Shown here: positions 2,184 to 50,530 of the stretch, in pieces
Numbering within the stretch: the first letter of the stretch is position 1
Layout: each line of letters begins with the position of its first letter
Source: Thermoplasmatota archaeon
GTDB taxonomy: Archaea; Thermoplasmatota; Penumbrarchaeia; Penumbrarchaeales; Penumbrarchaeaceae
Assembly (NCBI GenBank): GCA_965234725.1
Contig: CBDDUX010000003.1
Coordinates: 1 to 64,000, forward strand
DNA: 64,000 nt
Direction: 5' to 3'
Notes under the pieces: model-generated
What the model saw: the letters and a program-made list of their open reading frames with translations, nothing else
What the model was told of the DNA's origin: nothing
The model's database searches: none
Made by a program: the position numbers and the translations under genes

Positions 2184-2483
2184 TTGAGGATGAGTGAGAA
2201 ATTGAATGTGACTAATAATAAAATAAAAAAATATGTAAAAGAATTTATTATCATGAATTTTAATTATTCAATTAATAAAGATAGTTTAAATGATGATTCA
2301 TCATTCATTGATAATGGTATCATTGATTCTACCGGCGTACTTGAATTAATAGATTTTATTGAAGAAAAATTTAAGATAATAATAGAAAATGATGAAGTAA
2401 TTCCAGAAAATCTTGATTCTATAAATAATATTGTAAAGTATATCAAATCAAAAAACATTTCTGAAATCAGTTTGAAATATTGA
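2184..2483 (+). CDS. Acyl/aminoacyl carrier protein
   Basis: Small acidic core with GIIDSTGVLEL phosphopantetheine-Ser motif and PENLDSI tail; start may be 2190. Confidence 0.9.
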   Translation: MRMSEKLNVTNNKIKKYVKEFIIMNFNYSINKDSLNDDSSFIDNGIIDSTGVLELIDFIEEKFKIIIENDEVIPENLDSINNIVKYIKSKNISEISLKY

Positions 2484-2497
2484 TATAATGTGATAAT

Positions 2498-3466
2498 ATG
2501 AATAAAACTTTATCATACGATTTATTAAATATAAATCCTGAAATAGAATCAAAAAGATTAGAAGAATTTGTAAAAGTATCTGTTAACAAAAAATTAAAGA
2601 AAAAAGGTGTAATTATTGGTTTATCTGGTGGAATTGATAGCTCCTTATGTGGAGCAATATGTACAAAAGCGTTAGGAAAAGATAATGTGATAGGAATTTT
2701 TTCTCCAGAAAAAGAAAGTGAAGATGAAACTAATGTATTAGGAAAAGAAATTGCTGATCACTTAGATATAAAAGTAATTCATGAGGATATTACAGAAGTA
2801 CTTTCAAGTTTGAAATGCTATGAAAGAAGAAATGAGGCTATTCGAAGAATAATCCCTGGTTTTAAAGATAGTTGGGGGATTAAGATAATACAACCAAATC
2901 CTATCACATCAAATATGCTTAATGTCCCAATTATTGTCGTAAGAGATGATGATAATAATGAAATAAAAAAAAGAGTAGACCTTAAGTCCTATCTGCAAAT
3001 AGTATCAGCATCTAATTTTAAGCAAAGAGTAAGAAAAATAATAGAATATTATCATGCAGAAAGACTTAATTATTCTGTTGTTGGAACACCTAATTTCCTA
3101 GAATATGATCTGGGTTTTTTTGTAAAATATGGAGATGGTGCAGCAGATATTAAACCAATTTCACATTTATATAAATCGCAAGTTTTTCAACTTGGAAAGT
3201 ATTACAAAATTCCTGAAAAAATATTAAATAGAATTCCAACTACCGATACTTATTCATTGCCCCAAACACAAGAGGAATTTTATTTCTCTTTACCACTTCA
3301 AAAAATGGATATTTCATTGTATGCCTATAATAATAGTTATTCATTCAAAGAGTTAAGTACATTTTTATCAATTCCAGAGCAAATAGCTAGAAAAATATTC
3401 AATGACATAAAAAATAAAAAAAATATTTCTAATTTATTACTTACTCAACCCTTAGTATTAAATTAA
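2498..3466 (+). CDS. NadE-like ATP pyrophosphatase / amide ligase (glycan-cluster variant)
   Basis: GLSGGIDSS PP-loop, NFKQRVR, GTPN, GFFVKYGDGAADIKPI, PTTD. Confidence 0.85.
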   Translation: MNKTLSYDLLNINPEIESKRLEEFVKVSVNKKLKKKGVIIGLSGGIDSSLCGAICTKALGKDNVIGIFSPEKESEDETNVLGKEIADHLDIKVIHEDITEVLSSLKCYERRNEAIRRIIPGFKDSWGIKIIQPNPITSNMLNVPIIVVRDDDNNEIKKRVDLKSYLQIVSASNFKQRVRKIIEYYHAERLNYSVVGTPNFLEYDLGFFVKYGDGAADIKPISHLYKSQVFQLGKYYKIPEKILNRIPTTDTYSLPQTQEEFYFSLPLQKMDISLYAYNNSYSFKELSTFLSIPEQIARKIFNDIKNKKNISNLLLTQPLVLN

Positions 3467-3479
3467 TGAGTGTGGAATT

Positions 3480-4325
3480 GTGTATGAAAATTTTTTATTT
3501 ATTTATAAAATACTTACTGATGAAGGATTTGACGATTCTTTATATGAAACTCTCAATATTCTAAAATTTTTAAAAAATGATATATTTAATGATATAAATA
3601 TAGATGGTTTAAATGAAAGTAATTTCAATTTATATAATTTTATAAAGAAAAGGAAAGAGCATATACCTATAGAGTATATTTTTAATAAGGCTTATTTTAT
3701 GGAGAGATCTTTTCATTGCTCAAAAGATACACTTATACCCACATTTCATACAAAAATTATGGTAGAAAAAGTTATTGAATTAATTAATGATAATAAAAGA
3801 AAAATATTCAAAATAATTGATATGGGGACTGGTTGTTGTAATATTGCTTTATCAATAGCTTTAGAATGTAAAAATTGTAAATTATATGCTACTGATATTT
3901 CTGAAAAAGCAATAAAGATTGCAAAAAAAAATGTCGATAAATACAATTTGAATAGTAGAATATTTTTATTTTCAGGGGATATGTATGAACCATTTTCTAA
4001 TTCTGAAATAAAGGGTGAAATTGATATTATTGTTTGTAATCCACCTTATATACCAACTGACTCCATTGAGCATTTACCAGATGAAATTAAAAAATATGAG
4101 CCAATCATAGCTCTTGATGCGGGTCCATATGGATTAAATTTTTTTAACAGATTATTAAATGAGTCAAGTAATTTTCTCATTCATAAAGGAATTTTAATAT
4201 TTGAAATTGGAGAGGGTCAAGAGAGGTTAATTTTAAGATTAATAAAAAATAATAATACTTTTATTTTCAAAGATTTTATACAATACCATTCTAAACCAAG
4301 ATTTATTATTTGTGAAAAAAAATAA
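3480..4325 (+). CDS. PrmC/HemK-like SAM-dependent N-methyltransferase
   Basis: PIEYI, TLIP, DMGTGCCNIA, CNPPYI, EIGEGQ motifs. Confidence 0.85.
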   Translation: MYENFLFIYKILTDEGFDDSLYETLNILKFLKNDIFNDINIDGLNESNFNLYNFIKKRKEHIPIEYIFNKAYFMERSFHCSKDTLIPTFHTKIMVEKVIELINDNKRKIFKIIDMGTGCCNIALSIALECKNCKLYATDISEKAIKIAKKNVDKYNLNSRIFLFSGDMYEPFSNSEIKGEIDIIVCNPPYIPTDSIEHLPDEIKKYEPIIALDAGPYGLNFFNRLLNESSNFLIHKGILIFEIGEGQERLILRLIKNNNTFIFKDFIQYHSKPRFIICEKK

Positions 4326-4348
4326 TTGAATATTTAGGATGTTTAATA

Positions 4349-5989
4349 ATGTCTATATTTATCTTGCATTCTAATAATATGAACATTAATAAAGATATGA
4401 TAAATAAAATAAATAAAAATATGGAGCCATATAATATTAGTTATCCTTCTCCCTTAATAATCAAAAATAATGAATATAGTATAGTATTAATAAATAAAAA
4501 CAAATCCATAGATATTTCTAATGAAGGCATCCTTATAGGAAAAATAAATAAGGCAACATCTCAGAAGTGGAATAATATTAGAAGTCCTGCACCCTCAGGT
4601 ACATATATTATCATTAGGTATAAAAATGAAGAGTTAGAAATTTTATCAGATTTTATTGGATCTAACACAGTTTATTATTATTATTATAAAGACAAATATA
4701 TAATTTCAAACTCTATAAGGGCTATAGTTATGTTACTTGGAAGTTTTGTATTAAATAATGAAGTCATATCTTGGTATATTTCATGTGGAAACATGGGTCC
4801 ATTACTATGCTGGGATAAAAGAATAAAGGTACTACCATATAATTCTAAAATTTATATTAAAAATAATCAGTTAAAAATAATACTTGGAGAAAGGTTCTCA
4901 TTTAATAAGAAAACTAATGAAAAACAGAAAATTAAGTTAACAATCAAAAATATTATAGATAATATTTTAGAAAATATAAATTTTAACAAAAATGAAAGAT
5001 GGATCATTCCATTATCTGGAGGATATGATAGTAGGTATTTAATGCTTTTTTATAAAAATAAATTTGATTATATTACATGGGGATTAAAAGATAATGAGAA
5101 TAAAAAAGGAACCGATGCAAATATTTCTAATTTATTAAAATGTAAATATAAATTAAATCATCTTTATGAAAATGTAAATCCTGTTGAAGATTTTAATAAT
5201 TTTTTAGATAATTTTGTTTCAATAAGTGAGGGAAGAGTAGATCATATCTTTGGATACCTTGATAATTTTAATATTTGGAAAGAATTATATAATAAAAATT
5301 ATGATGGAATTATTAGGGGAGATGAGAATTTTGGTTTTTCTAATATGAAATCAGAAAAAAGTGCACAAGGAAAAAATGGATTTCATAGAATAAAAGATAA
5401 CAAATTATTAAAGAAATATTTACCAAATAACGAATTACCAAAACAATATAAAAGGAAAGATAATGAAGAATTAAACGATTTTGCTGATAGATTTTATCAT
5501 GAATTTAGGTACCCAATGATAAGTAGTTCATTAAATTTCATAAAGTCTAAATATATTGAAGTTATTAATCCTTATTTGTTTAATGAATTATTAGATTATA
5601 TTTCTACATTACCAGTAGAATATCGCATTAATAAGATTATATTTAAAGAAATTGTAGATGAATTGGAAAATGATATACCTATTGCATCATATCCTTCCAT
5701 CGGAAACCAAGAATTGTTATTCAATAATGACAATATAAAATCATATTTTGTTGAAAATATTAAAAATGTAAGATTTCCTTATTTTAATAATAATTTTCAA
5801 AGTAAAATTGTTAAAAATTTTTTATTAAATAAATATTATAAAAAAATATTAACAATAAAAAAGAAAGTTATTGAAAAATTATTTAATACAAGAGAACTTG
5901 ATATTAATATAATTGTTTTAAGAATAATTTTAATAAATAAAATAATATTATTATATAATAGTGATTCTAAAATAATTAATAATAAATAG
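4349..5989 (+). CDS. Asparagine synthase-like (AsnB-like) amide ligase lacking N-terminal Cys
   Basis: SDFIGSNTVYY, PLSGGYDSR PP-loop, RGDENFG, NPYL..ELLDYISTLP. Confidence 0.75.
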   Translation: MSIFILHSNNMNINKDMINKINKNMEPYNISYPSPLIIKNNEYSIVLINKNKSIDISNEGILIGKINKATSQKWNNIRSPAPSGTYIIIRYKNEELEILSDFIGSNTVYYYYYKDKYIISNSIRAIVMLLGSFVLNNEVISWYISCGNMGPLLCWDKRIKVLPYNSKIYIKNNQLKIILGERFSFNKKTNEKQKIKLTIKNIIDNILENINFNKNERWIIPLSGGYDSRYLMLFYKNKFDYITWGLKDNENKKGTDANISNLLKCKYKLNHLYENVNPVEDFNNFLDNFVSISEGRVDHIFGYLDNFNIWKELYNKNYDGIIRGDENFGFSNMKSEKSAQGKNGFHRIKDNKLLKKYLPNNELPKQYKRKDNEELNDFADRFYHEFRYPMISSSLNFIKSKYIEVINPYLFNELLDYISTLPVEYRINKIIFKEIVDELENDIPIASYPSIGNQELLFNNDNIKSYFVENIKNVRFPYFNNNFQSKIVKNFLLNKYYKKILTIKKKVIEKLFNTRELDINIIVLRIILINKIILLYNSDSKIINNK

Positions 5990-6001
5990 AATGGTGATAT
6001 C

Positions 6002-6667
6002 TTGAAAAAATCTAAATATAAACCTAAAAAATTAATATTGAGAAAAATATTATATAATTTTAAAATAATAGGTAGAAAATTAGGTTTTTCTATTTCATTT
6101 GAAGATAAATTAAATGATTTTATTGCTAGAGGAATGAAAATAGGAAAAGATGTTATTATTTCGCCAGGAACAATGTTTGATGAATTATATCCATATTTAA
6201 TAAGTATTGGAGATAATTCTATTTTATGTACTGGTACAAGATTAATCTCTCACGATTCAACAATTATAAGTATGACTGGAGGTTACCTAAGGTTGGGTAA
6301 AATAGATATTAAAGAAAACTGTATTATTGGATTGAATGTTATTATTTTACCTGGAGTTACTATTGGTCCAAATGCAATTGTAGCATCAGGATCTGTTGTT
6401 AACAAAGATATTCCTCCCAATTCATGTGTTGCTGGTGTTCCAGCTAGATTTTATGCAAAATATCAAGATGTTCAAAATAAATATAAAGAAGAAATACAAA
6501 AAGGACCCGTTTTTCTATCTGTAGATTTATCAAAAGATGAAGATGAGTTTTTTATAGAAAGAAAACTTAATATAATTAAAAACTCACAAAAAGGAAATGT
6601 ATGGATCAAGGGAAGAGAAAGTAGAAATCCTAAAAAAGTTAAAGATAAGATATATGGTGATCATTAA
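6002..6667 (+). CDS. Hexapeptide-repeat (left-handed beta-helix) acyltransferase
   Basis: ISIGDNS, SHD, IILPGVTIGPNAIVASGSVVNKDIPPNSCVAGVPAR. Confidence 0.9.
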   Translation: MKKSKYKPKKLILRKILYNFKIIGRKLGFSISFEDKLNDFIARGMKIGKDVIISPGTMFDELYPYLISIGDNSILCTGTRLISHDSTIISMTGGYLRLGKIDIKENCIIGLNVIILPGVTIGPNAIVASGSVVNKDIPPNSCVAGVPARFYAKYQDVQNKYKEEIQKGPVFLSVDLSKDEDEFFIERKLNIIKNSQKGNVWIKGRESRNPKKVKDKIYGDH

Positions 6668-7300
6668 TAGTTATTATGATATTGTTGCAAATTACATCGA
6701 GATTATAGCTCCATTACTATCCAAAAGAATTATTGAATTTGCCAGAAGTCTTCCTGATGAATTTAAAAATAATAAGAAATTGTGGATTTCATATGTATCT
6801 GGATTTGATGATATTGTATTTACTAAGAATCCATCGATAGAAAATATTTATAAAATTGTAGAAAATAAACAATTTTTAAAAGTAATAATTAAAGAATTAA
6901 AAAAAGATGACACTTTTAAGTTGATTAATAACATATTATTAAAAGATGTTTTAAAGAGAGTAGATTTTTATAATATAAATATTATACATTCTATGAATAT
7001 TCTAAAAAGAATTATTTATAATAGAATATATTATATTAAATGGGGTATCCACTTTACTCCTAAAAGTTTTATGATATAATGGCATATAACGGCAGATATT
7101 ATCTAAAATATATTGATATATAAATATCTTTGTAATTGCAGATTTCATGTGTCTTTGGGAGCTAAGTGGATACCCCAATTTATATTAATAAGAAAATATT
7201 TAAAAGTAATAAAAATAAGGTAAATATAAATTATTATAGACTTGCTACGAGATTATATTTAATAAAAATGATAATATTATTATATGAAAATAATTCTTAA
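6655..7300 (+). pseudogene. C-terminal remnant of a second AsnB-like gene, interrupted by MITE copy 2
   Basis: YIEIIAPLL..IIEFARSLP matches YIEVINPYL..LLDYISTLP of 4349-5989. Removing the MITE plus one TSD restores the frame to ...RLYLIKMIILLYENNS* (stop 7298-7300), cf. ...RIILINKIILLYNSDS. 5' boundary approximate. Confidence 0.8.
7039..7179. mobile_element. 141-bp MITE, copy 2
   Basis: Identical to 67-207; flanked by its own 8-bp TSD TTATATTA (7031-7038, 7180-7187). Confidence 0.93.
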
Positions 7301-7311
7301 TTATTAAGAAA

Positions 7312-8499
7312 ATGAGGGGTTACATGAATTTATTAATTTATAGTACAAATTCTCCTTTTTACGAAATAACTGGTCCTAATATTGGAGGAGCAGAAGTTTC
7401 TTTAAGAACAATAGCTAAAGAGTATAGTTTATTAGGTAATAAAGTTATTTACTTTACAAAAGGGAAAAAATTTAAAAAAATTAAATTAGATAATATTAAT
7501 ATAATTGTTATAAGATATTTTAGTTTGCCTATAATTAATATATTATTCAATAATATCAGAAATTTTGAAAGATATATTGATGATTTATTAACAATAAGAT
7601 ATTTAAAATATATAATAAAAAAAGAAAATATTAAAATCATTCATACTTACGCTTCATATCCTGATACTTATTTAGCAATATTATCTGTAAAAAATTCCGA
7701 AATTCCTGTATGTCAAAGACTTGGCGGATTACGAGCTTTTGATCTTAAATACTATAAAAATAAAAATATTAAAAAGAAAATCATTTGGAGTTTAAATAAT
7801 GTAAACTATTTTTTACCTGTAACAAAATTTTTAAAAAATGAAATAATTAATAAAATTTATATTAAAAATGTAGAATCTCGAATTTTATCAGTAATAGATA
7901 TTGGTCAAGATATTGTTATAAACAATAATACAATAAAGAAAAATAATAATTTTATATTTATTTCTTCATTTAAAGAAGGTAAATTACATAATATAATATT
8001 AGAAGCTATATCTATATTAAAAAAAAAGAATATAAAAATTTATGTTTCATTTATTGGAGATGGTCCTAAACTTAAAGAAAGTAAAATATTAGCAGGAAAG
8101 TTAGAAATTAATAATTATGTAAAATTTTTAGGAAAAATGAAACGAAATGAAGTTATTTCTAAACTGAATGAATCATATGGATTATTACATGCAACAGAAA
8201 GTGAAGGATTATGCAAATCTATTTTGGAGGCAATGTGTTGTAAAGTTCCAGTGATTGCTTCAAACGTTCCTGCCATAAATGAATATGTTTCTAATGGTTT
8301 TTCAGGTATACTTGTTGATAATGATCCACATCAATTTTCAGATGCTATTGAAAAGTTGATTAATGATGATAATTATGCAGAATATTTATCTTATAATGGG
8401 TACTTTTATGTAAAGAGTAATTTAAATCCAAAAATTCAAATTAAAGAATATGATAATTTATTTAAAAAAATATATGAAGTAGTTCCATTGAACTCTTAA
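7312..8499 (+). CDS. Glycosyltransferase family 4
   Basis: GGAE N-terminal motif, IGDGP, EGLCKSILEAM (EX7E). Confidence 0.9.
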   Translation: MRGYMNLLIYSTNSPFYEITGPNIGGAEVSLRTIAKEYSLLGNKVIYFTKGKKFKKIKLDNINIIVIRYFSLPIINILFNNIRNFERYIDDLLTIRYLKYIIKKENIKIIHTYASYPDTYLAILSVKNSEIPVCQRLGGLRAFDLKYYKNKNIKKKIIWSLNNVNYFLPVTKFLKNEIINKIYIKNVESRILSVIDIGQDIVINNNTIKKNNNFIFISSFKEGKLHNIILEAISILKKKNIKIYVSFIGDGPKLKESKILAGKLEINNYVKFLGKMKRNEVISKLNESYGLLHATESEGLCKSILEAMCCKVPVIASNVPAINEYVSNGFSGILVDNDPHQFSDAIEKLINDDNYAEYLSYNGYFYVKSNLNPKIQIKEYDNLFKKIYEVVPLNS

Positions 8500-8661
8500 G
8501 ATATAATATTTATAATAAATAATTATTACTTTAATTAATAATATGATTAAATGGTATATATTTAGACAATATATCTTTATAATTTTATATTCTATACTCA
8601 ATTTATTTTTTTACTGTAAAGTTAACTATTTCAAAAAAATTATTACGGGGAATTGATTTAA

Positions 8662-9777
8662 ATGAAAATAATGTTAATTGGACCAGGTGGAAAAACCGGA
8701 GGTGCCTCCATTCATACAAGAATGGTAAAAAAATATCTTATACAAAAGGGACATATTGTAAAGTTTATTAATATTTATAATAATAAAGGCCAAACAACAT
8801 CCTTTTCTATAAATAATATATTTGATATTATCTATAAAATTATCAAAAGGGTTTTTATTATACCTATATATATTTTGGTTAATCATAAAAATTATGATAT
8901 AATTCATGTACAATCTTCTGGACCTATTGGTGGATTTTTACATGCAATAACTGCTTCCATATTAAGAAGTTTTATTAAATTTAATTTAATAATAACATTC
9001 CATTACTCAAAAACATCTTTATTTGTTAAAAAGTACCCTAATTTAATGAAATTTGTTATTAAGAATTGTTCTTTGTTTATTGTAGTATCTAAGAAACAAA
9101 AAAATATAATTGAAAAATATTCTTTAGAAAAATTTAGTAGCAAGGTAATTATTATCAATAATGGATTTGAAGAAGTAGAAATTGAAAAAATCAAAAATGT
9201 AGATATATTTTCTAAATACAAAATATCTAAAAATAGTAAAATATTAATTAATGTTGCTTGGCTTCTTGAAAAAAAAGGGCAAATATATTTAATTAAATCT
9301 ATTGAAATATTAATTAAAAAATATAAAAATAAAAATTTTCATTGTTTTATAATAGGTCAAGGTCCATTGTATACATATTTAGATGATTATATAAAGAAAA
9401 ATCAATTAGAAAAATTCATTACATTAACGAATTACATATCAAATAATGAATTATATTCCTTCTTTAATAAAGCAAATATTTTTGTATTATCTAGTTTAGA
9501 AGAAGGGAATCCCCTAGTAATGTTTGAGTCATTAGGATTCGGAATACCATTTATTTCTACAAATGTAGGGGGAATACCAGAAATTATAACTTCTGAAGAG
9601 TTAGGATTATTATGTGATCCAAAGGACATTGATCATTTAGCAAAAAATATAGATTTAGCATTAAATAAAAATTGGAATTATCAATACATTCAAAAGTATG
9701 GTTTGCAATATACATGGTCTAAAATAACCGATAATACCATAAAAGCTTATGAAAAAATTATATATGAAAGTGGATAA
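8662..9777 (+). CDS. Glycosyltransferase family 4
   Basis: TGGASIH, KKGQ, EGNPLVMFESL, TNVGGIPE. Confidence 0.9.
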   Translation: MKIMLIGPGGKTGGASIHTRMVKKYLIQKGHIVKFINIYNNKGQTTSFSINNIFDIIYKIIKRVFIIPIYILVNHKNYDIIHVQSSGPIGGFLHAITASILRSFIKFNLIITFHYSKTSLFVKKYPNLMKFVIKNCSLFIVVSKKQKNIIEKYSLEKFSSKVIIINNGFEEVEIEKIKNVDIFSKYKISKNSKILINVAWLLEKKGQIYLIKSIEILIKKYKNKNFHCFIIGQGPLYTYLDDYIKKNQLEKFITLTNYISNNELYSFFNKANIFVLSSLEEGNPLVMFESLGFGIPFISTNVGGIPEIITSEELGLLCDPKDIDHLAKNIDLALNKNWNYQYIQKYGLQYTWSKITDNTIKAYEKIIYESG

Positions 9778-9778
9778 A

Positions 9779-10879
9779 ATGAAAATTTGTATAATTTCTA
9801 ATACACATTTATTTATAAAAGTAGGAGGAGCTGAACTTCAGACCTATTTGATTTCAAATTTTTTAAGAACGAAAGGATATGAAGTATATTATATATTTAA
9901 TTCTAATATTAATCAAAAATTTCCGGATGATGGTATTATTTATTTTAAAATTAAAAATTATGAAGGAAATCAATATAATTTTTTGAATTATTTTAAATTA
10001 AAAAGAATTTTAAAAAATATTTCACCTGATATTGTATTTCAAAGATCTGTTAATTCTTACAGTGGTTTTCTTTCTTTTTTAAAAAACAAATTAAATTATA
10101 TTTATATTATAAGTTTATCATCTGACATAAATAGTATTAAACATAATAAATATAAGAATAATAAAGTAAAAACTTTAATAAATATTCCAAATAATATTTT
10201 AAGTAATTATGGTTTATTAAAAGCAGATGAAATTATTGTACAATCAAAATATCAAAAAGAAAATATATTAAAAATTTTTCATAGAAATAGTTCTATAATA
10301 TACAATGGATTATCAATTGAAAAAAATGAAAAATCTGATAAATCAGATTTTACTATTTTGTGGGTAGGAAATATTAAACCTCTTAAGCAACCAGAAATAT
10401 TTATTAGGATAGCGAATTATTTTAAAAATTATCAAATTAAATTTATAATGATTGGTGAATTAAAAGAAGACAAATACAGTAATCACATAAGAATATTATT
10501 AAAAAATAGTAATGTAGAATTTTTAGGAAAAAAATCTTTAAAAGAGACTAATAAATATTTTAAAAAATCATCAATATATATTAATACAAGTAAATATGAA
10601 GGTTTTCCAAATACTTATATACAATCTTGGTTAAATGAAGCAATTGTTATTTCATTGAATGTCGATCCTGATAATATTTTAGAAAAAAATCATATAGGTT
10701 TTAAAATTAATAATGAGATAGAAATAAAATATTTAATACTAAAATTATATCAAAATCAAAATATTTTAAATAAAATTGGAAAAAGAGCTTATAAATACGC
10801 TGAAAGCAATCACAATATAAATAAAAATCTTAATAAATTAGTAGAAATAATTGAAAAGTATTCAGAGGAATCTTATTGA
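9779..10879 (+). CDS. Glycosyltransferase family 4
   Basis: GGAELQ, WVGNIKPLKQPE, EGFPNTYIQSW; start taken at MKICII. Confidence 0.88.
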   Translation: MKICIISNTHLFIKVGGAELQTYLISNFLRTKGYEVYYIFNSNINQKFPDDGIIYFKIKNYEGNQYNFLNYFKLKRILKNISPDIVFQRSVNSYSGFLSFLKNKLNYIYIISLSSDINSIKHNKYKNNKVKTLINIPNNILSNYGLLKADEIIVQSKYQKENILKIFHRNSSIIYNGLSIEKNEKSDKSDFTILWVGNIKPLKQPEIFIRIANYFKNYQIKFIMIGELKEDKYSNHIRILLKNSNVEFLGKKSLKETNKYFKKSSIYINTSKYEGFPNTYIQSWLNEAIVISLNVDPDNILEKNHIGFKINNEIEIKYLILKLYQNQNILNKIGKRAYKYAESNHNINKNLNKLVEIIEKYSEESY

Positions 10880-12138: not shown

Positions 12139-12172
12139 ATAAAAAAGAAGAAAATGCATATATGATAAGAGA

Positions 12173-13846: not shown

Positions 13847-13862
13847 CAAAATAAGTGATAAA

Positions 13863-15026: not shown

Positions 15027-16093
15027 TGGAAGAAATACCTATAATAATAGAAGATGATTGGGAATTAAAAGGAAATGGCCTGGGCAATGTAGCATCACAC
15101 CAATATTTACCATCTCTTTTCTTTATGAAAATGGCGAAAAAATATAATTTTAATATTTCATTCATGGTAGATGTAGCTCAACAATTGGAATTTCTAAAAA
15201 TAAAAAAAAAAAATATTGATATTCAAACTCAATTATGGAAAAGTATTGTAGAATTGATGAAAATAAATGGTTTTGATGTACAATTACATATTCATCCTCA
15301 ATGGATAAATTCTTCATATATAGAAAATTATTTTCATTTGACAAATAATTGGAACATAGCATTAATAAAGAATAAAAATATCATCAACAATTCTATAAAA
15401 TATTTAAAGGATATAATAAAACCTATTGATATAAATTATAAAATACATTCTTTCAAAGCTGGAGGTTGGGCCATTCAACCTTTTAATAATATTGTAAAAA
15501 ATTTAATAAATAATGATATAAAAATAATTATAGGACCGAGAAAAAATATGAAAAATGATCTGATGAACATAAATTACAAAAATATGCAGGAAGATATTTA
15601 TCCTTATTATCCTGATTATAATGATATTAATAGAATATCCTCAACACAAAAAAATATCTTTGTAATTCCGTTATCTCATATTAAAATTAATTTTTTAGAA
15701 TTATTATATTCTAATCCTATTAATAGTTATATTAATAAAAAACATCAGTTAGAAACATATTTTAAAATACCTTCATATATAAAAAAATTGAAACAGAACA
15801 AAGGGGAAACAATAATAAATAATATTTTTAGAAAAGTTGACACTCATATGAAAATAGGAAATCAACATTATAAATATTTACTAAAAACATTTAATATTAC
15901 TTTAAATAAATATAAAAAATTGGACAAGATAGCTCCAATTATATTTGAAACTCATACAAAAGATTTTATTTATAATTATAAAAATATTGATAAATTCTTT
16001 AATAAAATTACAAAAAATAAAAATATATATTTTATTACATTAACAGAGTTTTATAAAAATAGAAATAAATATTACATAAGGAATAATAATTAA
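15026..16093 (+). CDS. Polysaccharide deacetylase-like protein
   Basis: DDWEL, DVQLHIHPQW, FKAGGW, HTK motifs. Confidence 0.7.
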   Translation: MEEIPIIIEDDWELKGNGLGNVASHQYLPSLFFMKMAKKYNFNISFMVDVAQQLEFLKIKKKNIDIQTQLWKSIVELMKINGFDVQLHIHPQWINSSYIENYFHLTNNWNIALIKNKNIINNSIKYLKDIIKPIDINYKIHSFKAGGWAIQPFNNIVKNLINNDIKIIIGPRKNMKNDLMNINYKNMQEDIYPYYPDYNDINRISSTQKNIFVIPLSHIKINFLELLYSNPINSYINKKHQLETYFKIPSYIKKLKQNKGETIINNIFRKVDTHMKIGNQHYKYLLKTFNITLNKYKKLDKIAPIIFETHTKDFIYNYKNIDKFFNKITKNKNIYFITLTEFYKNRNKYYIRNNN

Positions 16094-16123
16094 GAAATAT
16101 TTTCATTCATAAAAAATATTTAT

Positions 16124-17014
16124 TTAATATTTATTAAAAATATTAGAATTCTGGGATTTATTTTGAAGAAGCGAATTCATTTCATCTATAAGCCCCTTAT
16201 CAAGATTTTCTTTCCATTTAAAATTATAATTTTTTACTTTAGATAAATCTAATGTTTTAAAATATTTTTTATCAAATCCAATGAACTCAGAAATACTATT
16301 AATATAATAGTGAGGATCTTCTGAAAAGTCTTCATAGGTAAATTCTAAAAAGTTATTATTTGTTAGAAGTCCATTTACTTTTTTTTGTTTTTCCACCTCT
16401 TCTAAATGGTATATCCAACTTTTAAAAGAAAATTTGACAATTTCTTCAAATGGATAATAATAACCTCTTCTCAAAAATTGTTGTTTATTTTCTTCAATCT
16501 TTTTCATCTGTTTTTTTCCCCATGAATATGCTACTGCTCTTCCATCTCGAATTATATGAATAATCTTCCCGTCAGGAAAGATTCTGAGAATATCTGGTAT
16601 TCGTAAAGTATTCATAGGACTTTTATTCAGAAAGAAATCAGTTTTAGAGATAGATTGAAAACATCCAAAGACTCCCTTCAACTCAATTTCTAATTGATAA
16701 TCAAAATATTCTCTCCAGACTTTAATATATTTATCAGTATCATACCATATGGGTGGTCGATCTAGATTTGTTGAATACCATGGGTAACCTTTTGGGTCCC
16801 AAATATCATTTGCTTCAGAATAGTTGCATATATCTCTATGTTCTTCTAAAATGTTAGTTAACATTGATGTACCGCTTCTACCACATCCAATAATAAAAAA
16901 TGGATTTTTCAGGAAGCTCATATATTTCTCTGGGTCTTTCCTTCCTAATCTTTTAGCAAATTCTTTTTTTCCTAATCGTAAACTTCCTTCCATTTTATCC
17001 TTAATTGTTGACAA
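16124..17014 (-). CDS. Sulfotransferase
   Basis: IIGCGRSGTSML (5'-PSB), NKSP, HIIRDGRAVAYS (3'-PB), YEDF. Confidence 0.9.
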   Translation of the reverse strand: MSTIKDKMEGSLRLGKKEFAKRLGRKDPEKYMSFLKNPFFIIGCGRSGTSMLTNILEEHRDICNYSEANDIWDPKGYPWYSTNLDRPPIWYDTDKYIKVWREYFDYQLEIELKGVFGCFQSISKTDFFLNKSPMNTLRIPDILRIFPDGKIIHIIRDGRAVAYSWGKKQMKKIEENKQQFLRRGYYYPFEEIVKFSFKSWIYHLEEVEKQKKVNGLLTNNNFLEFTYEDFSEDPHYYINSISEFIGFDKKYFKTLDLSKVKNYNFKWKENLDKGLIDEMNSLLQNKSQNSNIFNKY

Positions 17015-17175
17015 AAATATTCCATCCTGTTTTTTTTTTTATTCGTTTAGTAGTTATTAACTAATTTCATCAACATATTAATAAGTTGTGTTTGACAATC
17101 TTCATTTTTTTTAAATTATTTGATGATATTTAAAGTTTTAAATAAACATTAAATTTTAATAATGAAGGTGGATAA

Positions 17176-18042
17176 ATGGATTTTATATTTATTATAGGAG
17201 TAGCAAGAACAGGATCAAAGATATATAGAAACATTATCAATGATAATACAGATATTGATATTATTAATGAAATCCTTTTATTTCAACCTTTTCTTATTAA
17301 AGATGTGGATTATTATATAAATAAAATATGTAAAAGAAATAAAAATAATGTCAATAATTTAATTGATATAATGTACTCAGGAAATATACTTAGAGGAACT
17401 TTTTGGAAAAATAAGAAAAATAATAGAATATTTGAAATAGATAAGGAAATTCTAAGAAAAAAGATTAGTCAAAGAGAAATATCTACTCAAAATATATTTG
17501 AAAATATATTGATAGAACATGCAAAAGTTAAAAAAAAATCAAGAGGTGGAGCTAAATTCCCTGTAAATATAAAATATTTTAACAATTTATTTTCATGGTT
17601 TCCAAAAGCTTATTATTTACATATAATTAGGGATCCTCGGGCAATTTATTATTCAATGGTAAAAGGTGATTTAAAGAAAAATAAAAGAATATTAAAAACT
17701 TTTATTTATATATTTAGGTTAGTTTACTTAATAGACCAATATAAAGCAGCTCATAAATTACATATAAAAAATATGAATAAATGTAAATATTTATTAATAA
17801 AATTTGAAGATATGGTAAATAACCCAGAACAAAAATTATTAACATTATGTAACTTCATAGATGTAGAATATACAGAAAATATGTTATATCCTAAAATGCA
17901 GAATTCTTCATTTAACATAGAGAAATCCTCAGGAATAAATAAAAAAACTTTAACAAATTGGAGAGAAGGTTCAAATAAATATATAATAAAAATTATAGAA
18001 ATTTTATTGTATAAAGAGATGAAGTATTTCAATTATTTATAA
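17176..18042 (+). CDS. Sulfotransferase
   Basis: IIGVARTGSK, AKFP, HIIRDPRAIYYS, KFEDMV. Confidence 0.88.
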   Translation: MDFIFIIGVARTGSKIYRNIINDNTDIDIINEILLFQPFLIKDVDYYINKICKRNKNNVNNLIDIMYSGNILRGTFWKNKKNNRIFEIDKEILRKKISQREISTQNIFENILIEHAKVKKKSRGGAKFPVNIKYFNNLFSWFPKAYYLHIIRDPRAIYYSMVKGDLKKNKRILKTFIYIFRLVYLIDQYKAAHKLHIKNMNKCKYLLIKFEDMVNNPEQKLLTLCNFIDVEYTENMLYPKMQNSSFNIEKSSGINKKTLTNWREGSNKYIIKIIEILLYKEMKYFNYL

Positions 18043-18242
18043 AAATAAATTTTATATATTTATAGATTATTCAAATGTTACTTATAATTTTTAGACAATT
18101 ATAAAATAATAAATGCTTTTTTGAAAAGCCATGTGTATCATTTTGAAGAGACTAATTATTATATGAAAGTTAATTCATCTTGGATAAACCCTGGGATACC
18201 CCAAAAAACATATTCATATAGATATTTTTAATCGTTCTATCA

Positions 18243-21200
18243 ATGTCCCCATATACAAGAAGAAGATTAATATTATGTAAAATATGTGCATTTATAATAG
18301 TTATATTCTTTTTATCAGATATTCTTGTTAAAAGAGAAGCTATTGAAGTAAACAACTCAATTTTGATTGAATATGAAAATTTTTCTTTTAATGATGTTAT
18401 ATCAAAAGATAACTATTTAAACACTTATTATCTTGATTCTCAAAAAGGAAATGATAATAATAATGGAACAAGCCCCAATTTTCCCTGGAAAACTATCACA
18501 AAGGTTTCTTCAAAAATATTCTATCCTGGTGATAGAATTCTTTTTAAAAGAGGATTAATGTGGAATTGCTCTAATCCATACGATTGGCTCAGAATTAGAG
18601 GAAACGGTAATATAACTCATCCAATAATAATATCTGCTTATGGAGAAGGACATCGTCCTATTATAAACGGGAAATGGATAGGTAAAAATGGTATTAATAT
18701 AGATGGTCAATATATTAATGTAGAACATTTTGAAGTTAAAAATGCTAATGGACACGGAATAGCTATTAATCCACCAGATGGAGCAAGATATAATGATGTT
18801 TATGATTGTATAGTTCATGACTGTAATGGAACTTTAATAGTTGTATGTGAGACTGGTGGGAATAATGTAAGTATTCGAAATTGTCATGTGTATGGAAAAG
18901 GTAATACTGGAATAAGTCTACAGGGTTCTCCTTCACCGATTACCAACACATTAATTGAAAATTGTACGGCAAACAATCTTTCTCATGGTGATGGCATCAA
19001 TATTCATCGTAACATGAAATTAAATGAAGTTGGTAATTATCATATTATAAGAAACAATACATGTTATAATAATGATGAAGAAGGAATTGATTTAAATTCC
19101 GGGACATTTATTATTATCGAAAAAAATCAATGTTATGGAAACACAATGGGTTCTATTGTTTGTGGTATAGGTAGTTCTAATATAATAATTCGAAATAATT
19201 ATTTTCATGATGATAATATTGCAGGACTCAAAACTGGTATAATGATTCAATTGAATAGACCAAATATATTATTTCATAATAATTTAGTTGTAGGGTTTGA
19301 AAATACACGTCATATAATTGGGTTGATGGATTATAATGATTGGAAGGAACCTGAAAACGTTAGAATATCCCATAACACAATAATATCCTTAAAGAGTGAT
19401 TATTCATATCATTCAATATTTCGTCTTTGGGATGAATATGATGGATTGGGAAATATTACAATAGATAATAATATAATTATTGGATCAAGTAAAGTAAATA
19501 ATTATATATCATTTGTTTACTGTAGTGCTGCAGATGAAAGATTCGTTTTACACAACAACTATTATTTTGGAATTGATAAAGAACCAATCTTTTCTTCCAA
19601 TGATAAAAATTCCTTCAATTTCAGTTATTTACAAACTATATTCAAACAAGAAAAATATGGTAAAGTAATCAATCCAAATTTATATGATATTTCAAATCTG
19701 AATTATTCCTTAGAATCTTGTTCACCAGCCATAGATAATGGTCATAATGAATCGGGATTATTATCTGGAGAAGATTTTTTTGAAAATCCAATCTATGGCC
19801 AACCTGATAAAGGGGCGATTGAGTATCAACCTAAATACCAAATAGGAAAGGATCCTATTGATATTACATCTGGAATCAGAATATATTTAGATGGAAAATA
19901 TCGATACGCTTCCCCGGTCATGAGCGGAACAAAAGCTAATCTTTCCCTGGAACCAATCTCGGGATGGCCGAACTTTAAAAAGACAGAGAAAAGGGACCAA
20001 TGGATGGATATTAAAATCAATACATGGAACTTATCAAGTGTTTTCAAAATTAAATGGACAGAATCGAATTATCTGAACTCTGGTGAAAGGGCATACATTA
20101 TTGGAAACTTAATAAGTGAGAATTATTACTATATAAATATAAACAATTTTAATCATTTTTTGATAAGAGCAGATAAAAGTGGAAGTATAAAATTCAATCT
20201 TTCAAATTCAAACGGAAAGAATATAATTGAGATAAATGAATACAATATAGGAGTAGAATACAGCTCTGATTGTGATTTTCAACTTCCTGTTACTGGTGAA
20301 CCTTATACATTGAGGACCTTTATTAAAAACGAAAACGTATTGAAGAACGTCAAAGTGAACTACTGGTTTGATAACGATATCACAAGAAGCAATGTTCAAT
20401 TGGGAGAGAATTTACAATATTTTAAGAACGATACATGGGAATGTACAATTGATATTCCAATAAATGCCACCTATCTCGAATATTATTATACATCTCTTGA
20501 TGTAAATGATTTAGAACAAAGGTCTCATGTGTTCCATTCTAATATCATAGATAATTTGAAACCAGAGATTATAGATAATTCACCTAAAGAGGCATTTGCG
20601 GGTTCTATCTTCGATTTCGATTTCCAAATAACGGATAACATTGGTTTAAGCAAGGTGGTCTTAGAATACTGGTTTGATGGAGATAATCATATAAACAATT
20701 CACTTATCGGAAATAAGATATTCAATTTTAAGATAATAATTCCGAATATAATTAACAATAATCTGTTTTATATTATTCATGCATACGACATATTCGGTAA
20801 TCACAATTACACAAATATCATTACTTTGCATATCATTGATACAATGGTGGAATTGGTCATCGATCATTCCCCATCATTTAGTTATACTGGAGATGAATTT
20901 TTATTTGATATTCAGATAAAGGAATTTGACAAGATCAATCAATCTTACATAATATACTGGTATGAAAATAGTATTAAAAAGCAAATTGTACCACTTATTG
21001 AATCTTTAAATTTTGAGAAAATAGACATTTCATATTATTACATAGGAAATTTATATTATCAATTGATTTTACTTGATTATAATGGAACATATAGGAATTC
21101 AACCATTAAAGAAATTAAAATTTCAGATAATGATCCACCTGTCATCAATTGGATAGATTATCCAAAGGAGGCAAGGTGTGGAGAGGATATTATAATTTTT

Positions 21201-22286
21201 ATGAACATTACGGATAATAGCCAAATTGAGAAGATTGTCATAGAATATTGGGATAATTACAACCACATTTTCAAAGCTGAATTTGAAGCAAACATGGGAT
21301 ATATTTCTCTAATAATCCCCAATTATGCTAAGAACATCACTTTCATTTTATCCGTAAAGGATATCTTTGGAAACATTATAATATCCAAAGAAAACGAAAT
21401 ATCGATAATCGATGACAAGAGGCCGATACTTGAACTACAGGGTGAAAACGGTCTATTATATTTTGATGATAAATTAACATTTTCAATAATTGCATTAGAT
21501 AATATTGGCATATGTGATGTATTCTTAGAATATCTTATATTTGGAGAAAATGAAAAGTTACAACCAATGGTTCTCTTGGGTGACTCCTATATTTACTCAA
21601 TTAATCTCAGTGAAATAAAGGGACAATACTTCAGATACAGATTCAATGTCACGGACACAACTGGTAATTATGTACAGACAAACACCTATGTCTTTTTTAG
21701 AGATGAATACTCTAAATTTAAAGAAATTCACGTTGTGGAACTCAATAATTCTAATACAACTTCCCTGGGAAACCAGATTATTACTCCAGAGATATCTGGA
21801 GACACAACGGTTATTAATTCCTCCAGAAATGACCTCCAGCCTATCCAAAATGGAGTGGGAAACGAAACAATATCCAAAATTGACAATGATGTAATTACAG
21901 ATGAGGAGAAAAATATACTTCAAGGATTTATAGCTAAGAAAAAACCAATGACGGTACTAATTCTGGTGACCTTGTCTATATCCGTTGGATTAATATTGAT
22001 AGTAATAAGGAAAAGAGATAGGAAAAGTGATTCTAATGATTATTTCGAAGAAAATTCCAGTCCATACAATGATGAGATCGGTGAAACTGAATTAATTGAT
22101 AATCAAGAAATTTTAGATATTGATACAATTTGTGAAGAAATAGATGATTTTTTCAAAGTTTACGAGATGGGGGTTCAATGTCCATCCATGACTATTACAC
22201 AAAATCAGAAAGAGGAACCTTATATAGATGATTTGGAACCAGAGTTACAGGAGATTGAGGATATTTTAAATCTTATCAATGGTTGA
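18243..22286 (+). CDS. Large secreted/surface protein: parallel beta-helix plus Ig-like repeats plus C-terminal TM anchor
   Basis: N-terminal hydrophobic segment, YYLDS..GNDNNNGTSP..PWKTI, Asn-rich beta-helix repeats, SPAIDNG/DKGAIEY, repeated D.NP..DxxP units, TM then RKRDRK. Confidence 0.8.
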   Translation: MSPYTRRRLILCKICAFIIVIFFLSDILVKREAIEVNNSILIEYENFSFNDVISKDNYLNTYYLDSQKGNDNNNGTSPNFPWKTITKVSSKIFYPGDRILFKRGLMWNCSNPYDWLRIRGNGNITHPIIISAYGEGHRPIINGKWIGKNGINIDGQYINVEHFEVKNANGHGIAINPPDGARYNDVYDCIVHDCNGTLIVVCETGGNNVSIRNCHVYGKGNTGISLQGSPSPITNTLIENCTANNLSHGDGINIHRNMKLNEVGNYHIIRNNTCYNNDEEGIDLNSGTFIIIEKNQCYGNTMGSIVCGIGSSNIIIRNNYFHDDNIAGLKTGIMIQLNRPNILFHNNLVVGFENTRHIIGLMDYNDWKEPENVRISHNTIISLKSDYSYHSIFRLWDEYDGLGNITIDNNIIIGSSKVNNYISFVYCSAADERFVLHNNYYFGIDKEPIFSSNDKNSFNFSYLQTIFKQEKYGKVINPNLYDISNLNYSLESCSPAIDNGHNESGLLSGEDFFENPIYGQPDKGAIEYQPKYQIGKDPIDITSGIRIYLDGKYRYASPVMSGTKANLSLEPISGWPNFKKTEKRDQWMDIKINTWNLSSVFKIKWTESNYLNSGERAYIIGNLISENYYYININNFNHFLIRADKSGSIKFNLSNSNGKNIIEINEYNIGVEYSSDCDFQLPVTGEPYTLRTFIKNENVLKNVKVNYWFDNDITRSNVQLGENLQYFKNDTWECTIDIPINATYLEYYYTSLDVNDLEQRSHVFHSNIIDNLKPEIIDNSPKEAFAGSIFDFDFQITDNIGLSKVVLEYWFDGDNHINNSLIGNKIFNFKIIIPNIINNNLFYIIHAYDIFGNHNYTNIITLHIIDTMVELVIDHSPSFSYTGDEFLFDIQIKEFDKINQSYIIYWYENSIKKQIVPLIESLNFEKIDISYYYIGNLYYQLILLDYNGTYRNSTIKEIKISDNDPPVINWIDYPKEARCGEDIIIFMNITDNSQIEKIVIEYWDNYNHIFKAEFEANMGYISLIIPNYAKNITFILSVKDIFGNIIISKENEISIIDDKRPILELQGENGLLYFDDKLTFSIIALDNIGICDVFLEYLIFGENEKLQPMVLLGDSYIYSINLSEIKGQYFRYRFNVTDTTGNYVQTNTYVFFRDEYSKFKEIHVVELNNSNTTSLGNQIITPEISGDTTVINSSRNDLQPIQNGVGNETISKIDNDVITDEEKNILQGFIAKKKPMTVLILVTLSISVGLILIVIRKRDRKSDSNDYFEENSSPYNDEIGETELIDNQEILDIDTICEEIDDFFKVYEMGVQCPSMTITQNQKEEPYIDDLEPELQEIEDILNLING

Positions 22287-22309
22287 CCCTATAATAATAA
22301 AGTGATTAG

Positions 22310-23824
22310 ATGTTGCTTCATGAGACTCTATTTGGCAATGATAAGATCGATCCAAATAAAATTGCCTTGTATATGGATAATGAAGAATATAACTATGAGA
22401 GTATTATAAAGGATTCGATATCATTTTCATTTGAAATCATGAAAAGGGGATTAATGAAAGGAGATAGGGTCATTACATTACTTGAGAATTCATATGAATT
22501 CATAATATCAACGTATGGAATTCTTACATCTGGTTGTATTTTAGTTCCCCTTAATCCAAAACTTACCAAAGAGAAAATTGTTTTTATCATCCAAGATACT
22601 GATCCCTCGCTAATATTGATATCTGAAAAAGTCTTCCAATCCATATTCAACGGAGATGAAGATTTTCCTTTTCTTATAATAGAAAAGAATATTTCAAATG
22701 AAAAAAAGGAAAAAAGAAGTAATGTTGAAATCATTGACTGTGATATTGCTGCAATACTATACACCTCGGGTTCGACGGGAATTCCCAAAGGAGTGACACT
22801 GACCCATTTGAACATGGTAACAGCATTGAGGTCAATTACACAATACCTGAACAATTCTTCAAATGACATATTTTTGAATATGTTACCATTCTCATTTGAT
22901 TATGGTCTATATCAAATTTTTCTCTCATTTTTCTGTGGAGGTTCTTTGGTCATCCACAACGATATTATATTTTCGTCGAAAATACCTGAGATAATAAAGA
23001 AAAGGAAAGTAACTGCACTACCGATTGTTCCAGCTCTAGGGCAGATACTTCTCAGGTTGAAACCAGATCCCTACGATCTCGTTTCGATAAGGTATATAAC
23101 TAACACAGCTCAAAATATTCCGGAATCAACTATCAAGGGATTGGTTGACCTCATACCTAAAGTAAAAATATTTTCGATGTATGGACTAACAGAATGCAAA
23201 AGGATTAGCTACCTTGATCCTTCAAAGATCCTATTAAAACCAAATTCTGTAGGAAAAGCTATCCCAAATGTCGAGGTCTTTCTTATAGATAATGAGGGTA
23301 ATAGGATTGAAAAGCCCTATTCCAGAGGTGAATTGGTTGTAAGAGGATCCAATGTTATGCTTGGATATTGGAAAAATAAGATCGAGACAGATAATGCACT
23401 GAGAGAAGGTTACTTTCCAATGGAAAAGGTACTTTTCACAGGAGATATTTTTGAATTTGATGAAGATGGTGACCTTTATTTTATTTCTCGAAAAGATGAT
23501 GTTTTTAAAGTTGGAGGTCAAAAGGTATCTCCTATAGAGATTGAAAAAGCATTACTCCAGCATGGATCTATTAATGAAGCAGCTGTTATCAAGAGCCAAG
23601 ACAAAATATTGGGAAATTCAATTGTCGCAATCGTAAGTGTTGAGGGGGTTATTAATCAAAAGGAAATCAAAGAATATATCAAGGGAAAACTTGAGGATCA
23701 TTTGGTTCCAAGATTAATATTTATTGTTACTTCATTGCCAAAAAATTCAAACGGAAAGGTGGATAAACAGTTACTAGAAAAGACCTATGGAACAAATTTC
23801 AATGAACATAAATCTCTTTTTTGA
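22310..23824 (+). CDS. Stand-alone adenylate-forming (AMP-binding) enzyme
   Basis: YTSGSTGIPKG, FSFDYGLYQ, YGLTE, TGD, RKDD, LPKNSNGKVDK. Confidence 0.92.
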   Translation: MLLHETLFGNDKIDPNKIALYMDNEEYNYESIIKDSISFSFEIMKRGLMKGDRVITLLENSYEFIISTYGILTSGCILVPLNPKLTKEKIVFIIQDTDPSLILISEKVFQSIFNGDEDFPFLIIEKNISNEKKEKRSNVEIIDCDIAAILYTSGSTGIPKGVTLTHLNMVTALRSITQYLNNSSNDIFLNMLPFSFDYGLYQIFLSFFCGGSLVIHNDIIFSSKIPEIIKKRKVTALPIVPALGQILLRLKPDPYDLVSIRYITNTAQNIPESTIKGLVDLIPKVKIFSMYGLTECKRISYLDPSKILLKPNSVGKAIPNVEVFLIDNEGNRIEKPYSRGELVVRGSNVMLGYWKNKIETDNALREGYFPMEKVLFTGDIFEFDEDGDLYFISRKDDVFKVGGQKVSPIEIEKALLQHGSINEAAVIKSQDKILGNSIVAIVSVEGVINQKEIKEYIKGKLEDHLVPRLIFIVTSLPKNSNGKVDKQLLEKTYGTNFNEHKSLF

Positions 23825-25187: not shown

Positions 25188-25397
25188 TACTATCTTAAAT
25201 AAGTTGGTCTTTTATTCTCCATCTCTTTTTCTTTCATTCGCCCACTTGATCAGCTTTGGCTTTAATTTTTAAAGAAAGAAATGCAAACATCGTCACTCAT
25301 ATATTAGTCAAAATACATCAAATAAACATTGTTTTATACGTTTTAGTTAAATACTAATTCAACATTAATGCAACATCAATTGCGTTGATTGGAGTGA

Positions 25398-26324: not shown

Positions 26325-26611
26325 TTGTACTTGGGTCGTTTTCCAGTGATCTCAACGTGATCATCAATTAGCGATCTCCTTCTCCCCTCCAGATCACAAC
26401 CGGGATAGGACCTGTAAATTCTATAATACTCTGCCTCAGGCATAGGAAAGACACCTTCTGTTAAGTGTTCACTCAACATGGACCTAAGAGGACCTGCTCC
26501 AACGTACAGAATATCCTCTTCTCCGGAAAGGACCTCATAGACCATGATGTCATTTCCCTCGATCTCGAGGGAATCCCCTCGAAGTGGCTTCTTCGTACTG
26601 TTTTCCTTCAT
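26315..26611 (-). CDS. Small GIY-YIG-like protein
   Basis: VYEV..ILYVG..LRSML.EH and terminal RPKYN. Confidence 0.6.
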   Translation of the reverse strand: MKENSTKKPLRGDSLEIEGNDIMVYEVLSGEEDILYVGAGPLRSMLSEHLTEGVFPMPEAEYYRIYRSYPGCDLEGRRRSLIDDHVEITGKRPKYNHD

Positions 26612-37415: not shown

Positions 37416-37437
37416 ATAACCACTCCTTCATATGTAT

Positions 37438-37977: not shown

Positions 37978-37992
37978 ATAGCATACCTCCTA

Positions 37993-38943: not shown

Positions 38944-38947
38944 ATTA

Positions 38948-40093: not shown

Positions 40094-40116
40094 ATAATCA
40101 CCATTCATTGAATTTT

Positions 40117-50529: not shown

Positions 50530-50530
50530 C

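Follow-up and report, generated by a model that had tools for sequence, protein, structure and literature searches.

A split archaeal variant of a carrier-protein gene cassette with NadE-like and PrmC-like enzymes

The DNA analysed here, referred to as the window, comprises the first 64,000 nucleotides of contig CBDDUX010000003.1 (C3) in the genome assembly of a Thermoplasmatota archaeon (GCA_965234725.1), and it opens with a run of closely spaced genes, all on the forward strand, that includes most of a small gene cassette built around an acyl carrier protein (ACP). The run is headed by an NDP-sugar (nucleoside diphosphate sugar) 6-dehydrogenase of 549 amino acids (510–2159), which belongs to the glycan context and lies outside the conserved cassette. 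It is followed by the ACP itself (99 amino acids, 2184–2483), the acyl or aminoacyl carrier protein of the cassette, with Ser49 in the motif GIIDSTG; by a NadE-like PP-loop ATP pyrophosphatase of subtype A (motif SGGIDS, 2498–3466), proposed to be an amidoligase; and by a bacterial PrmC/HemK-type N-methyltransferase with an NPPY motif (3480–4325). Next come a divergent enzyme of the AsnB superfamily with 546 amino acids and no N-terminal cysteine (4349–5989) and a left-handed beta-helix (hexapeptide) acyltransferase (PF00132, 6002–6667), a candidate transferase for the carrier-bound group. The gaps in front of these five genes are 24, 14, 13, 23 and 12 nucleotides, in that order. The remaining cassette member, a stand-alone VinN-like amino-acid adenylating enzyme (hereafter the ligase; PF00501, motifs FSFDYGLYQ, TNTAQ and TECKRIS), is encoded on the same strand at 22310–23824. 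A first-pass annotation, made from the sequence alone, had joined the ACP, the ligase and the NadE-, PrmC- and AsnB-like genes into one module resembling a nonribosomal peptide synthetase (NRPS). A check of the open reading frames (ORFs) confirmed that every gene it named is real and lies on the forward strand at these coordinates, and that the genes of the run follow one another with gaps of 12–24 nucleotides.

The association of these genes was examined by searching with the NadE-like protein, which returned 7,990 proteins at E ≤ 1e-20, ordinary NadE enzymes included. Thirty metagenome loci (L113–L142) carry a NadE-like gene of the NF002048 type at 36–49% identity, and 49 loci of ordinary NadE from the same scan (24–35% identity, 386,620 bases) served as a control. 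A ligase gene was found in 17 of the 30 loci, an ACP gene in 13 and a PrmC-like gene in 7, mostly as immediate neighbours of the NadE-like gene in the same orientation. Seven loci have none of the three, and five of these lie on contigs shorter than 3.4 kb; the other 23 have one or more. The control loci yielded a single weak ligase match, no ACP and no PrmC-like gene. Hexapeptide-related genes occur in 4 of the 30 loci and in a second locus of the archaeon itself, on contig C26, and none is listed among the matches for the control loci. Polysaccharide deacetylases were seen in 3 of the 15 metagenome loci that were scanned with Pfam and in one of three archaeal loci scanned.

The archaeal sample consisted of 301 genomes of the same phylum, the present one (G000) included. 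The NF002048 cut-off was exceeded in six of them, the cassette ACP was found in six and the ligase in seven. The NadE-like, ACP and ligase genes come together in G000, G059 and G125; in G094, the locus is cut by a contig end. The genes for the ACP, both subtypes of the NadE-like enzyme (NadE-B, then NadE-A) and the PrmC-like enzyme are consecutive in G059, with the ligase 7 kb off, while in G125 the ACP, ligase and NadE-B genes are adjacent. A protein of 340 amino acids with a weak DUF7411 match (L110:8479–9501) is encoded directly after NadE-B in G125, with a GNAT-like protein next to it, and both are possible further partners of the cassette in that genome. The ACP, ligase, NadE-like and PrmC-like genes are one conserved cassette, of four genes rather than five, whose co-occurrence is far above chance in bacteria as well as in archaea. 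The proposal that five genes travel together held for these four and failed for the AsnB-like gene, as described below.

A compact form of the cassette is found on pSymB of Sinorhizobium meliloti, with the genes in the order asnB, ACP, ligase, nadE; in the strain examined, the ligase is spread over two ORFs. Along the part that matched, which is 75% of the query, the pSymB nadE product shares 49.6% identity with the NadE-like protein of the window, and the motifs FDYGLYQ and TECKR are both conserved in the pSymB ligase. According to the available text of PMC7232532, which cites Ramos-Vega 2009, the ligase gene SMb20650 is cotranscribed with the ACP gene SMb20651, and co-expression of the two gives acylated SMb20651 in E. 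coli; the same text reports that SMb20650 cannot replace FadD. As far as their available text goes, the publications searched (on ACP, NAD synthetase and asparagine synthetase themes, and on PEP-CTERM sets) contain no functional description of the cassette. The locus in the window is a split archaeal variant of this documented cassette.

The pSymB cassette is flanked by aldo/keto reductase genes and minCDE, and the 14.7 kb displayed there contain no sugar genes. Aldo/keto reductases recur close to the NadE-like gene, at a distance of one or two genes, in the metagenome loci L127 and L138 and on pSymB (L192). The carrier protein might serve to build a small metabolite or an amino lipid instead of a glycan substituent, which would suit both the lack of a polysaccharide context in S. 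meliloti and the recurrence of these reductases. However, the cassette stands among glycan genes (glycosyltransferases, a flippase-type Polysacc_synt, a sugar transferase or polysaccharide deacetylases) in the window, in G059 and G125, on C26 of the same genome and in several of the 15 scanned metagenome loci, and we regard a metabolite or lipid product as decidedly improbable.

The NadE-like protein scores 426 bits against NF002048 ('NAD(+) synthase'), for which the cut-off is 313. Its AlphaFold2 (AF2) model (pLDDT 87.7) has the NadE fold, matching 2e18 with a TMt of 0.85 at 24% identity, but contains an inserted stretch of roughly 70 residues. The PP-loop signature SGGxDS is present as SGGIDS. 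A separate, canonical housekeeping NadE is encoded on contig C27 (217 bits in one continuous match), and the NadE-like protein is therefore not the sole NAD synthetase of the genome. Pairwise identities divide the NadE-like proteins into two subtypes. Subtype A contains the window protein, one copy each from G059 and G094 (G059-a, G094-a) and the bacterial copies; subtype B contains the protein encoded on C26, the other copies of these two genomes (G059-b, G094-b), those of G125 and G119, and the upstream copy of L139. In the archaeal cassettes, a NadE-B paralog takes the place of the canonical AsnB. The NadE-B gene of the present archaeon belongs to a second glycan locus (C26:78000–97999, L011), which also encodes a GT4 glycosyltransferase, an AcpS, several GT2 enzymes, a FabG-like short-chain dehydrogenase/reductase, a DUF3473 polysaccharide deacetylase and the hexapeptide transferase already mentioned, together with a bacterial-type S-adenosylmethionine synthetase (L011:457–1665).

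The PrmC-like protein is barely over the curated cut-off of TIGR03534 (201.1 against 199.1 bits) and has the NPPY motif. In the genome, which is 97.65% complete, the archaeal release factor aRF1 was matched at 538 bits and no match to the bacterial release factor RF1 (TIGR00019) was found, RF2 having had no separate search. Because bacterial RF1 was not found and aRF1 is present, the PrmC-like enzyme appears to be without a bacterial release-factor substrate in this archaeon. The best candidate for the archaeal HemK2/Mtq2, at C3:99185–99616, is not claimed, as its 70 bits fall under the cut-off of 87, and the idea that the organism is a methanogen was dropped, McrA not having been found in the same genome. 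In one metagenome locus, a single ORF (L133:7299–9761) fuses AMP-binding and MTS methyltransferase domains. If the annotations were taken literally, a spare NAD synthetase, a glutamine methyltransferase for release factors or ribosomal proteins, and an asparagine synthetase would have come together in a glycan island by chance. The cut-offs of NF002048 and TIGR03534, both passed, speak for such a reading, but a housekeeping NadE exists, bacterial RF1 was not found, the ACP and ligase accompany the NadE-like gene strongly and specifically and are lacking at ordinary NadE loci, one ligase is fused to a methyltransferase, and the AsnB-like protein has no catalytic cysteine. A chance assembly of this kind is scarcely credible.

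The small protein at 2184–2483 falls just short of the PF00550 gathering cut-off (20.4 against 20.8 bits). It is called an ACP all the same, because several ACP models of NCBIfam recognise it, the best with E 2.7e-14, and because it has the conserved serine: Asp48 and Ser49, the DS motif, are invariant in an alignment of 13 cassette ACPs. It is the only protein of its kind in the genome and, as a small DS-site ACP next to a NadE-like gene, it has the form and the place of a cassette ACP. The best NCBIfam name of the protein suggested OlsH and ornithine lipids; this lead was dropped, since the OlsH of the accessible literature concerns a GH3-like enzyme in planctomycetes. A predicted complex of the NadE-like dimer with the ACP scored 0.32 against 0.21 for a control and was weighed neither for nor against an interaction. 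As the first-pass annotation had observed, no phosphopantetheinyl transferase (PPTase) is encoded in the window; matches to PF01648 in the genome are confined to C26 and C54. The one on C26 is an AcpS-type PPTase, separated from the NadE-B gene by a single GT4 gene, and in the same-genus genome G119 no gene stands between NadE-B and AcpS. On C54 (about 21274–26421), an open frame of 3741 amino acids encodes six PP-binding domains in tandem along with a PPTase domain of the ACPS type. It resembles a polyunsaturated fatty acid (PUFA) synthase or a megasynthase of the polyketide synthase (PKS) type, which is unusual for an archaeon; the contamination of the genome is estimated at 2.54%.

The ligase matches PF00501 with 236 bits, and its best PDB matches are NRPS adenylation (A) domains and VinN (3wvn, 2e-66). 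When the pocket region is considered by itself, VinN (3wv4) is the best PDB match (E 4e-29), ahead by nine orders of magnitude. Alignment to 3wv4 places Asp, Tyr, Thr, Lys and Arg of the window ligase at the VinN positions D230, F231, S299, K330 and R331, with an ungapped loop, so that the features of a VinN-type pocket (D230, a bulky residue at 231, Ser or Thr at 299, and K330-R331 on a shortened loop) are all present. The available text of PMC11253843 describes these VinN residues as binding 3-methylaspartate and L-Asp as beta-amino acids. Among 13 other cassette ligases, 12 have the Lys-Arg pair and 11 the Asp, and the S. meliloti gene has both. Judged by its PDB matches and its pocket, the enzyme looks like an A domain for amino acids and not like a fatty-acid ligase, in agreement with the earlier proposal that an amino acid or acyl group is loaded on the ACP, and it probably activates an aspartate-type acid as a beta-amino acid.

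The AsnB-like protein has no Pfam match of its own and reaches TIGR01536 only at E 0.0012, and a PDB sequence search with its profile gave nothing at E ≤ 0.01. Many of the 110 homologues found have PF00733, and the PP-loop SGGxDS is invariant in the family alignment. The AF2 model (pLDDT 89.3, pTM 0.90) was matched by Foldseek over both domains to AsnB (1ct9, 1.3e-14), beta-lactam synthetase, carbapenam synthetase and TsnB9. The first-pass annotation had pointed out that the protein begins with MSIF, without the cysteine of an N-terminal nucleophile (Ntn) hydrolase, and is unlikely to hydrolyse glutamine; this is borne out by the family consensus, MSK, which has Ser and not Cys at position 2. 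Related loci were collected with an eight-sequence alignment, giving 76 genome loci with 10-kb flanks, almost all of them bacterial. None of the 76 holds a NadE-like, PrmC-like or ACP gene, one holds a ligase, and the usual neighbours are ordinary polysaccharide genes. Because the three genes are missing from all 76 loci, the AsnB-like gene is placed outside the conserved module. The family features mark its product as a separate ATP-dependent amide-forming enzyme, predicted to be unable to use glutamine. It perhaps amidates something else, such as a uronic acid made by the dehydrogenase, or it replaces the canonical bacterial AsnB. An ORF of 160 amino acids (6597–7079, forward strand) overlaps the 3' end of the hexapeptide gene and matches residues ~395–530 of the AsnB-like family; all 80 ORFs that it matched in the 76 loci were also matched by the AsnB-like query. 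This resemblance suggests that the ORF is a remnant, what survives of a second AsnB-like gene after truncation.

Between this remnant and the ligase lie genes for glycan assembly (7312–18042), namely three GT4 enzymes, a Wzx-type flippase, three proteins of no assigned role and two sulfotransferases (16124–18042), followed by a beta-helix surface protein of 1347 amino acids on the forward strand (18243–22286), which also occurs in synteny with the ligase in a second genome of the genus. A DUF1616 protein is encoded downstream of the ligase. The first 26 kb of the window have a GC content of 17–33% in a genome of about 45%. Since the window starts where C3 starts, the left edge of this island is cut. 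Where the low-GC region ends on its right side, an ORF of 308 amino acids (25398–26324) has weak matches to IS1/IS6 transposases and a Cys-rich N-terminal region; it is conserved in the same-genus genome G190. Beside the island, a complete set for sulfate uptake and activation (36033–44323) encodes a Na/sulfate symporter, an adenosine 5'-phosphosulfate (APS) kinase, a sulfate adenylyltransferase and a sulfate ATP-binding cassette (ABC) transporter, together with a DHH-family protein (a possible 3'-phosphoadenosine 5'-phosphate (pAp) phosphatase) and a sulfotransferase-like ORF of 192 amino acids. Taken together with the two sulfotransferases, this set indicates a sulfated glycan. Two McrB-like genes and one McrC-like gene, as in a 5-methylcytosine restriction system, are situated downstream of the glycan region (49075–53307).

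On the observed gene identities, folds, co-occurrence and pocket residues, a pathway can be proposed, every step of which we infer. The AcpS-type PPTase encoded on C26 beside NadE-B would prime the ACP. The VinN-like ligase would activate the side-chain carboxyl of an amino dicarboxylic acid of the aspartate type, handling it as a beta-amino acid, and transfer the acid to the ACP as a thioester. The NadE-like enzyme would then adenylate the remaining free carboxylate and convert it to a carboxamide with ammonia, and the PrmC-like NPPY methyltransferase would N-methylate the new amide, or the amine, much as PrmC acts on a glutamine side chain. Finally, an acyltransferase, possibly the hexapeptide enzyme at 6002–6667, would move the group onto a sugar or amino sugar of the sulfated glycan. 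Aspartyl groups, including aspart-4-yl, that are N-linked to amino sugars are described for Providencia, Proteus and Treponema glycans in the available text of PMC10609480. The reading as a whole, in which a horizontally acquired low-GC surface-glycan island of an archaeon holds a split copy of the cassette and an aspartyl group is amidated and N-methylated on its carrier before transfer to the glycan, is tentative, and we give it a probability of roughly 0.45.

The first-pass annotation had instead directed the amidation to uronic acids of the glycan. In that case, the dehydrogenase would supply uronic acids, and the NadE-like and AsnB-like enzymes would adenylate these at the C6 carboxylate, giving uronamides, or amides with an amino acid that the ACP and the ligase bring. 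The dehydrogenase has three UDPG_MGDP_dh domains (PF03720, PF00984 and PF03721), with 188.8 bits against a cut-off of 189.8 for TIGR03026. Its gene ends 24 nucleotides upstream of the ACP and recurs in three of the four loci of archaeal relatives with a family-level NadE-like gene (L108, L109 and L111, but not L110), and the AsnB-like protein shares the missing glutaminase cysteine with beta-lactam and carbapenam synthetases, which use nucleophiles other than ammonia. Against this, the dehydrogenase is present in only 1 of the 30 NadE-like metagenome loci and in 11 of the 76 AsnB-like loci, the S. meliloti cassette has no sugar genes near it, and an amino acid already activated as a thioester needs no second, ATP-dependent activation of its acceptor. 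The rarity of the dehydrogenase and the position of the S. meliloti copy outside any glycan locus leave the link to uronic acids weak, and for these two reasons the carboxylate that is amidated is more likely the free one of the carrier-bound amino acid. Modification of uronic acids is accordingly held to be unlikely. What remains of the NRPS-like interpretation is a four-gene carrier-protein module, while the membership of the AsnB-like gene and the uronic-acid target have fallen away and the ligase is encoded at a distance.

Several points weigh against on-carrier modification of an aspartyl group. Two of the five VinN pocket positions are kept only conservatively (Tyr for Phe and Thr for Ser). 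The ligase gene carries the family motifs but lies about 18 kb from the ACP gene and is not adjacent to it. Its closest homologues (52–53% identity, with the same TNTAQ and TECKR motifs) stand alone in genomes G047, G194 and G129 of the genus g5, where they adjoin surface beta-helix proteins; no NF002048 match at E ≤ 1e-40 was found in any of the three, of which G047 is 95% complete, and only G194 has the cassette ACP. The same-genus genome G190 has a fragmented ligase gene in synteny with those for DUF1616 and hydroxymethylglutaryl-CoA (HMG-CoA) reductase, and because of this synteny the ligase belongs to a conserved flank and not obviously to the island. Of the 15 metagenome loci scanned with Pfam, 9 have a canonical glutamine-hydrolysing AsnB (GATase_7 plus Asn_synthase) next to the cassette, but this enzyme is missing in the present genome, where no full-length PF00733 match was found. 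Furthermore, the two PP-loop enzymes of each cassette (AsnB or NadE-B, plus NadE-A) exceed the one free carboxylate, no transferase is rigorously tied to the cassette, and both the substrate and the acceptor are predictions.

The stand-alone orthologues and the synteny in G190 could also mean that the ligase is no partner of the ACP, NadE-like and PrmC-like trio, and is tied to the beta-helix protein and DUF1616 instead, with the ACP loaded in some other way or the cassette incomplete and inactive. The GC content of the ligase gene, 33% against 21–27% for the trio, agrees with such a separation. However, the genome has no other VinN-type ligase (the next candidate shares 32% identity), ligases that adjoin cassette ACPs carry identical pocket motifs, and in G059 the ligase is likewise at some distance, 7 kb, from the ACP within one locus. 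We therefore consider it improbable that the trio and the ligase are not partners.

A more far-reaching form of the proposal, that of carrier-bound aspartyl modification, would have homologues of two familiar enzymes, NAD synthetase and the glutamine methyltransferase of release factors, recruited to carrier-bound aspartate, where their product would be an N-methyl-isoasparaginyl group, the alpha-(N-methyl)amide of a beta-linked aspartyl residue. As a glycan substituent this group would be undescribed, and its formation would be a new on-carrier chemistry, present in many bacterial phyla and passed to archaea by gene transfer, with a second NadE-like type replacing AsnB. In so specific a form, the proposal is doubtful. 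Annotation pipelines label thousands of such genes nadE, prmC, asnB or fatty-acid ligase; if the cassette does make amidated, N-methylated aminoacyl decorations, these labels are wrong and a widespread modification of surface polymers has been overlooked. The archaeal copy shows the gene set moving between domains, and a variant with NadE-B in place of AsnB and its parts scattered over the genome helps to define which parts are essential.

Among known systems, the S. meliloti pSymB operon is built from the same ACP, ligase and NadE-like families as the window. It is compact and opens with a canonical glutamine-hydrolysing AsnB, whereas the copy in the window is split, with the ligase 18 kb off and the PPTase and NadE-B on another contig, and has in addition a PrmC-like methyltransferase, a non-canonical AsnB-like gene and the setting of an archaeal glycan island. 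The NH3-dependent NAD+ synthetase of P. horikoshii (2E18) resembles the NadE-like protein in fold and PP-loop; the latter differs in its low identity (24%), its insertion of ~70 residues and its place in a separate curated subfamily, and genes of its type sit with an ACP and a ligase, a context that ordinary NadE loci lack.

In vicenistatin biosynthesis, a pyridoxal phosphate (PLP)-dependent decarboxylase removes the free carboxylate of the starter unit. Starter loading by VinN, VinL and VinO (PDB 3WV4/3WVN) shares with the window a stand-alone A enzyme with a pocket of Asp, an aromatic residue, Ser or Thr, and Lys-Arg, as well as a stand-alone ACP. In the window, the proposed NadE-like amidoligase stands in the place of the decarboxylase, and no PKS follows.

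The exosortase-A/PEP-CTERM-associated gene set brings together a TIGR03098 ligase with an ACP, an amidotransferase and a deacetylase. TIGR03098 is the best NCBIfam match of the window ligase (384 bits, below the cut-off of 592), and polysaccharide deacetylases and AsnB also recur beside the cassette; however, no exosortase or PEP-CTERM genes were seen in the window. D-alanylation of teichoic acids by DltA and DltC follows a shared logic, in which a stand-alone A enzyme and a small carrier decorate a surface polymer, and two genes of the membrane-bound O-acyltransferase (MBOAT) type lie beside the cassette in L136. The window differs from the Dlt system in having neither DltB nor DltD, and in that the carrier-bound group appears to be modified before its transfer.

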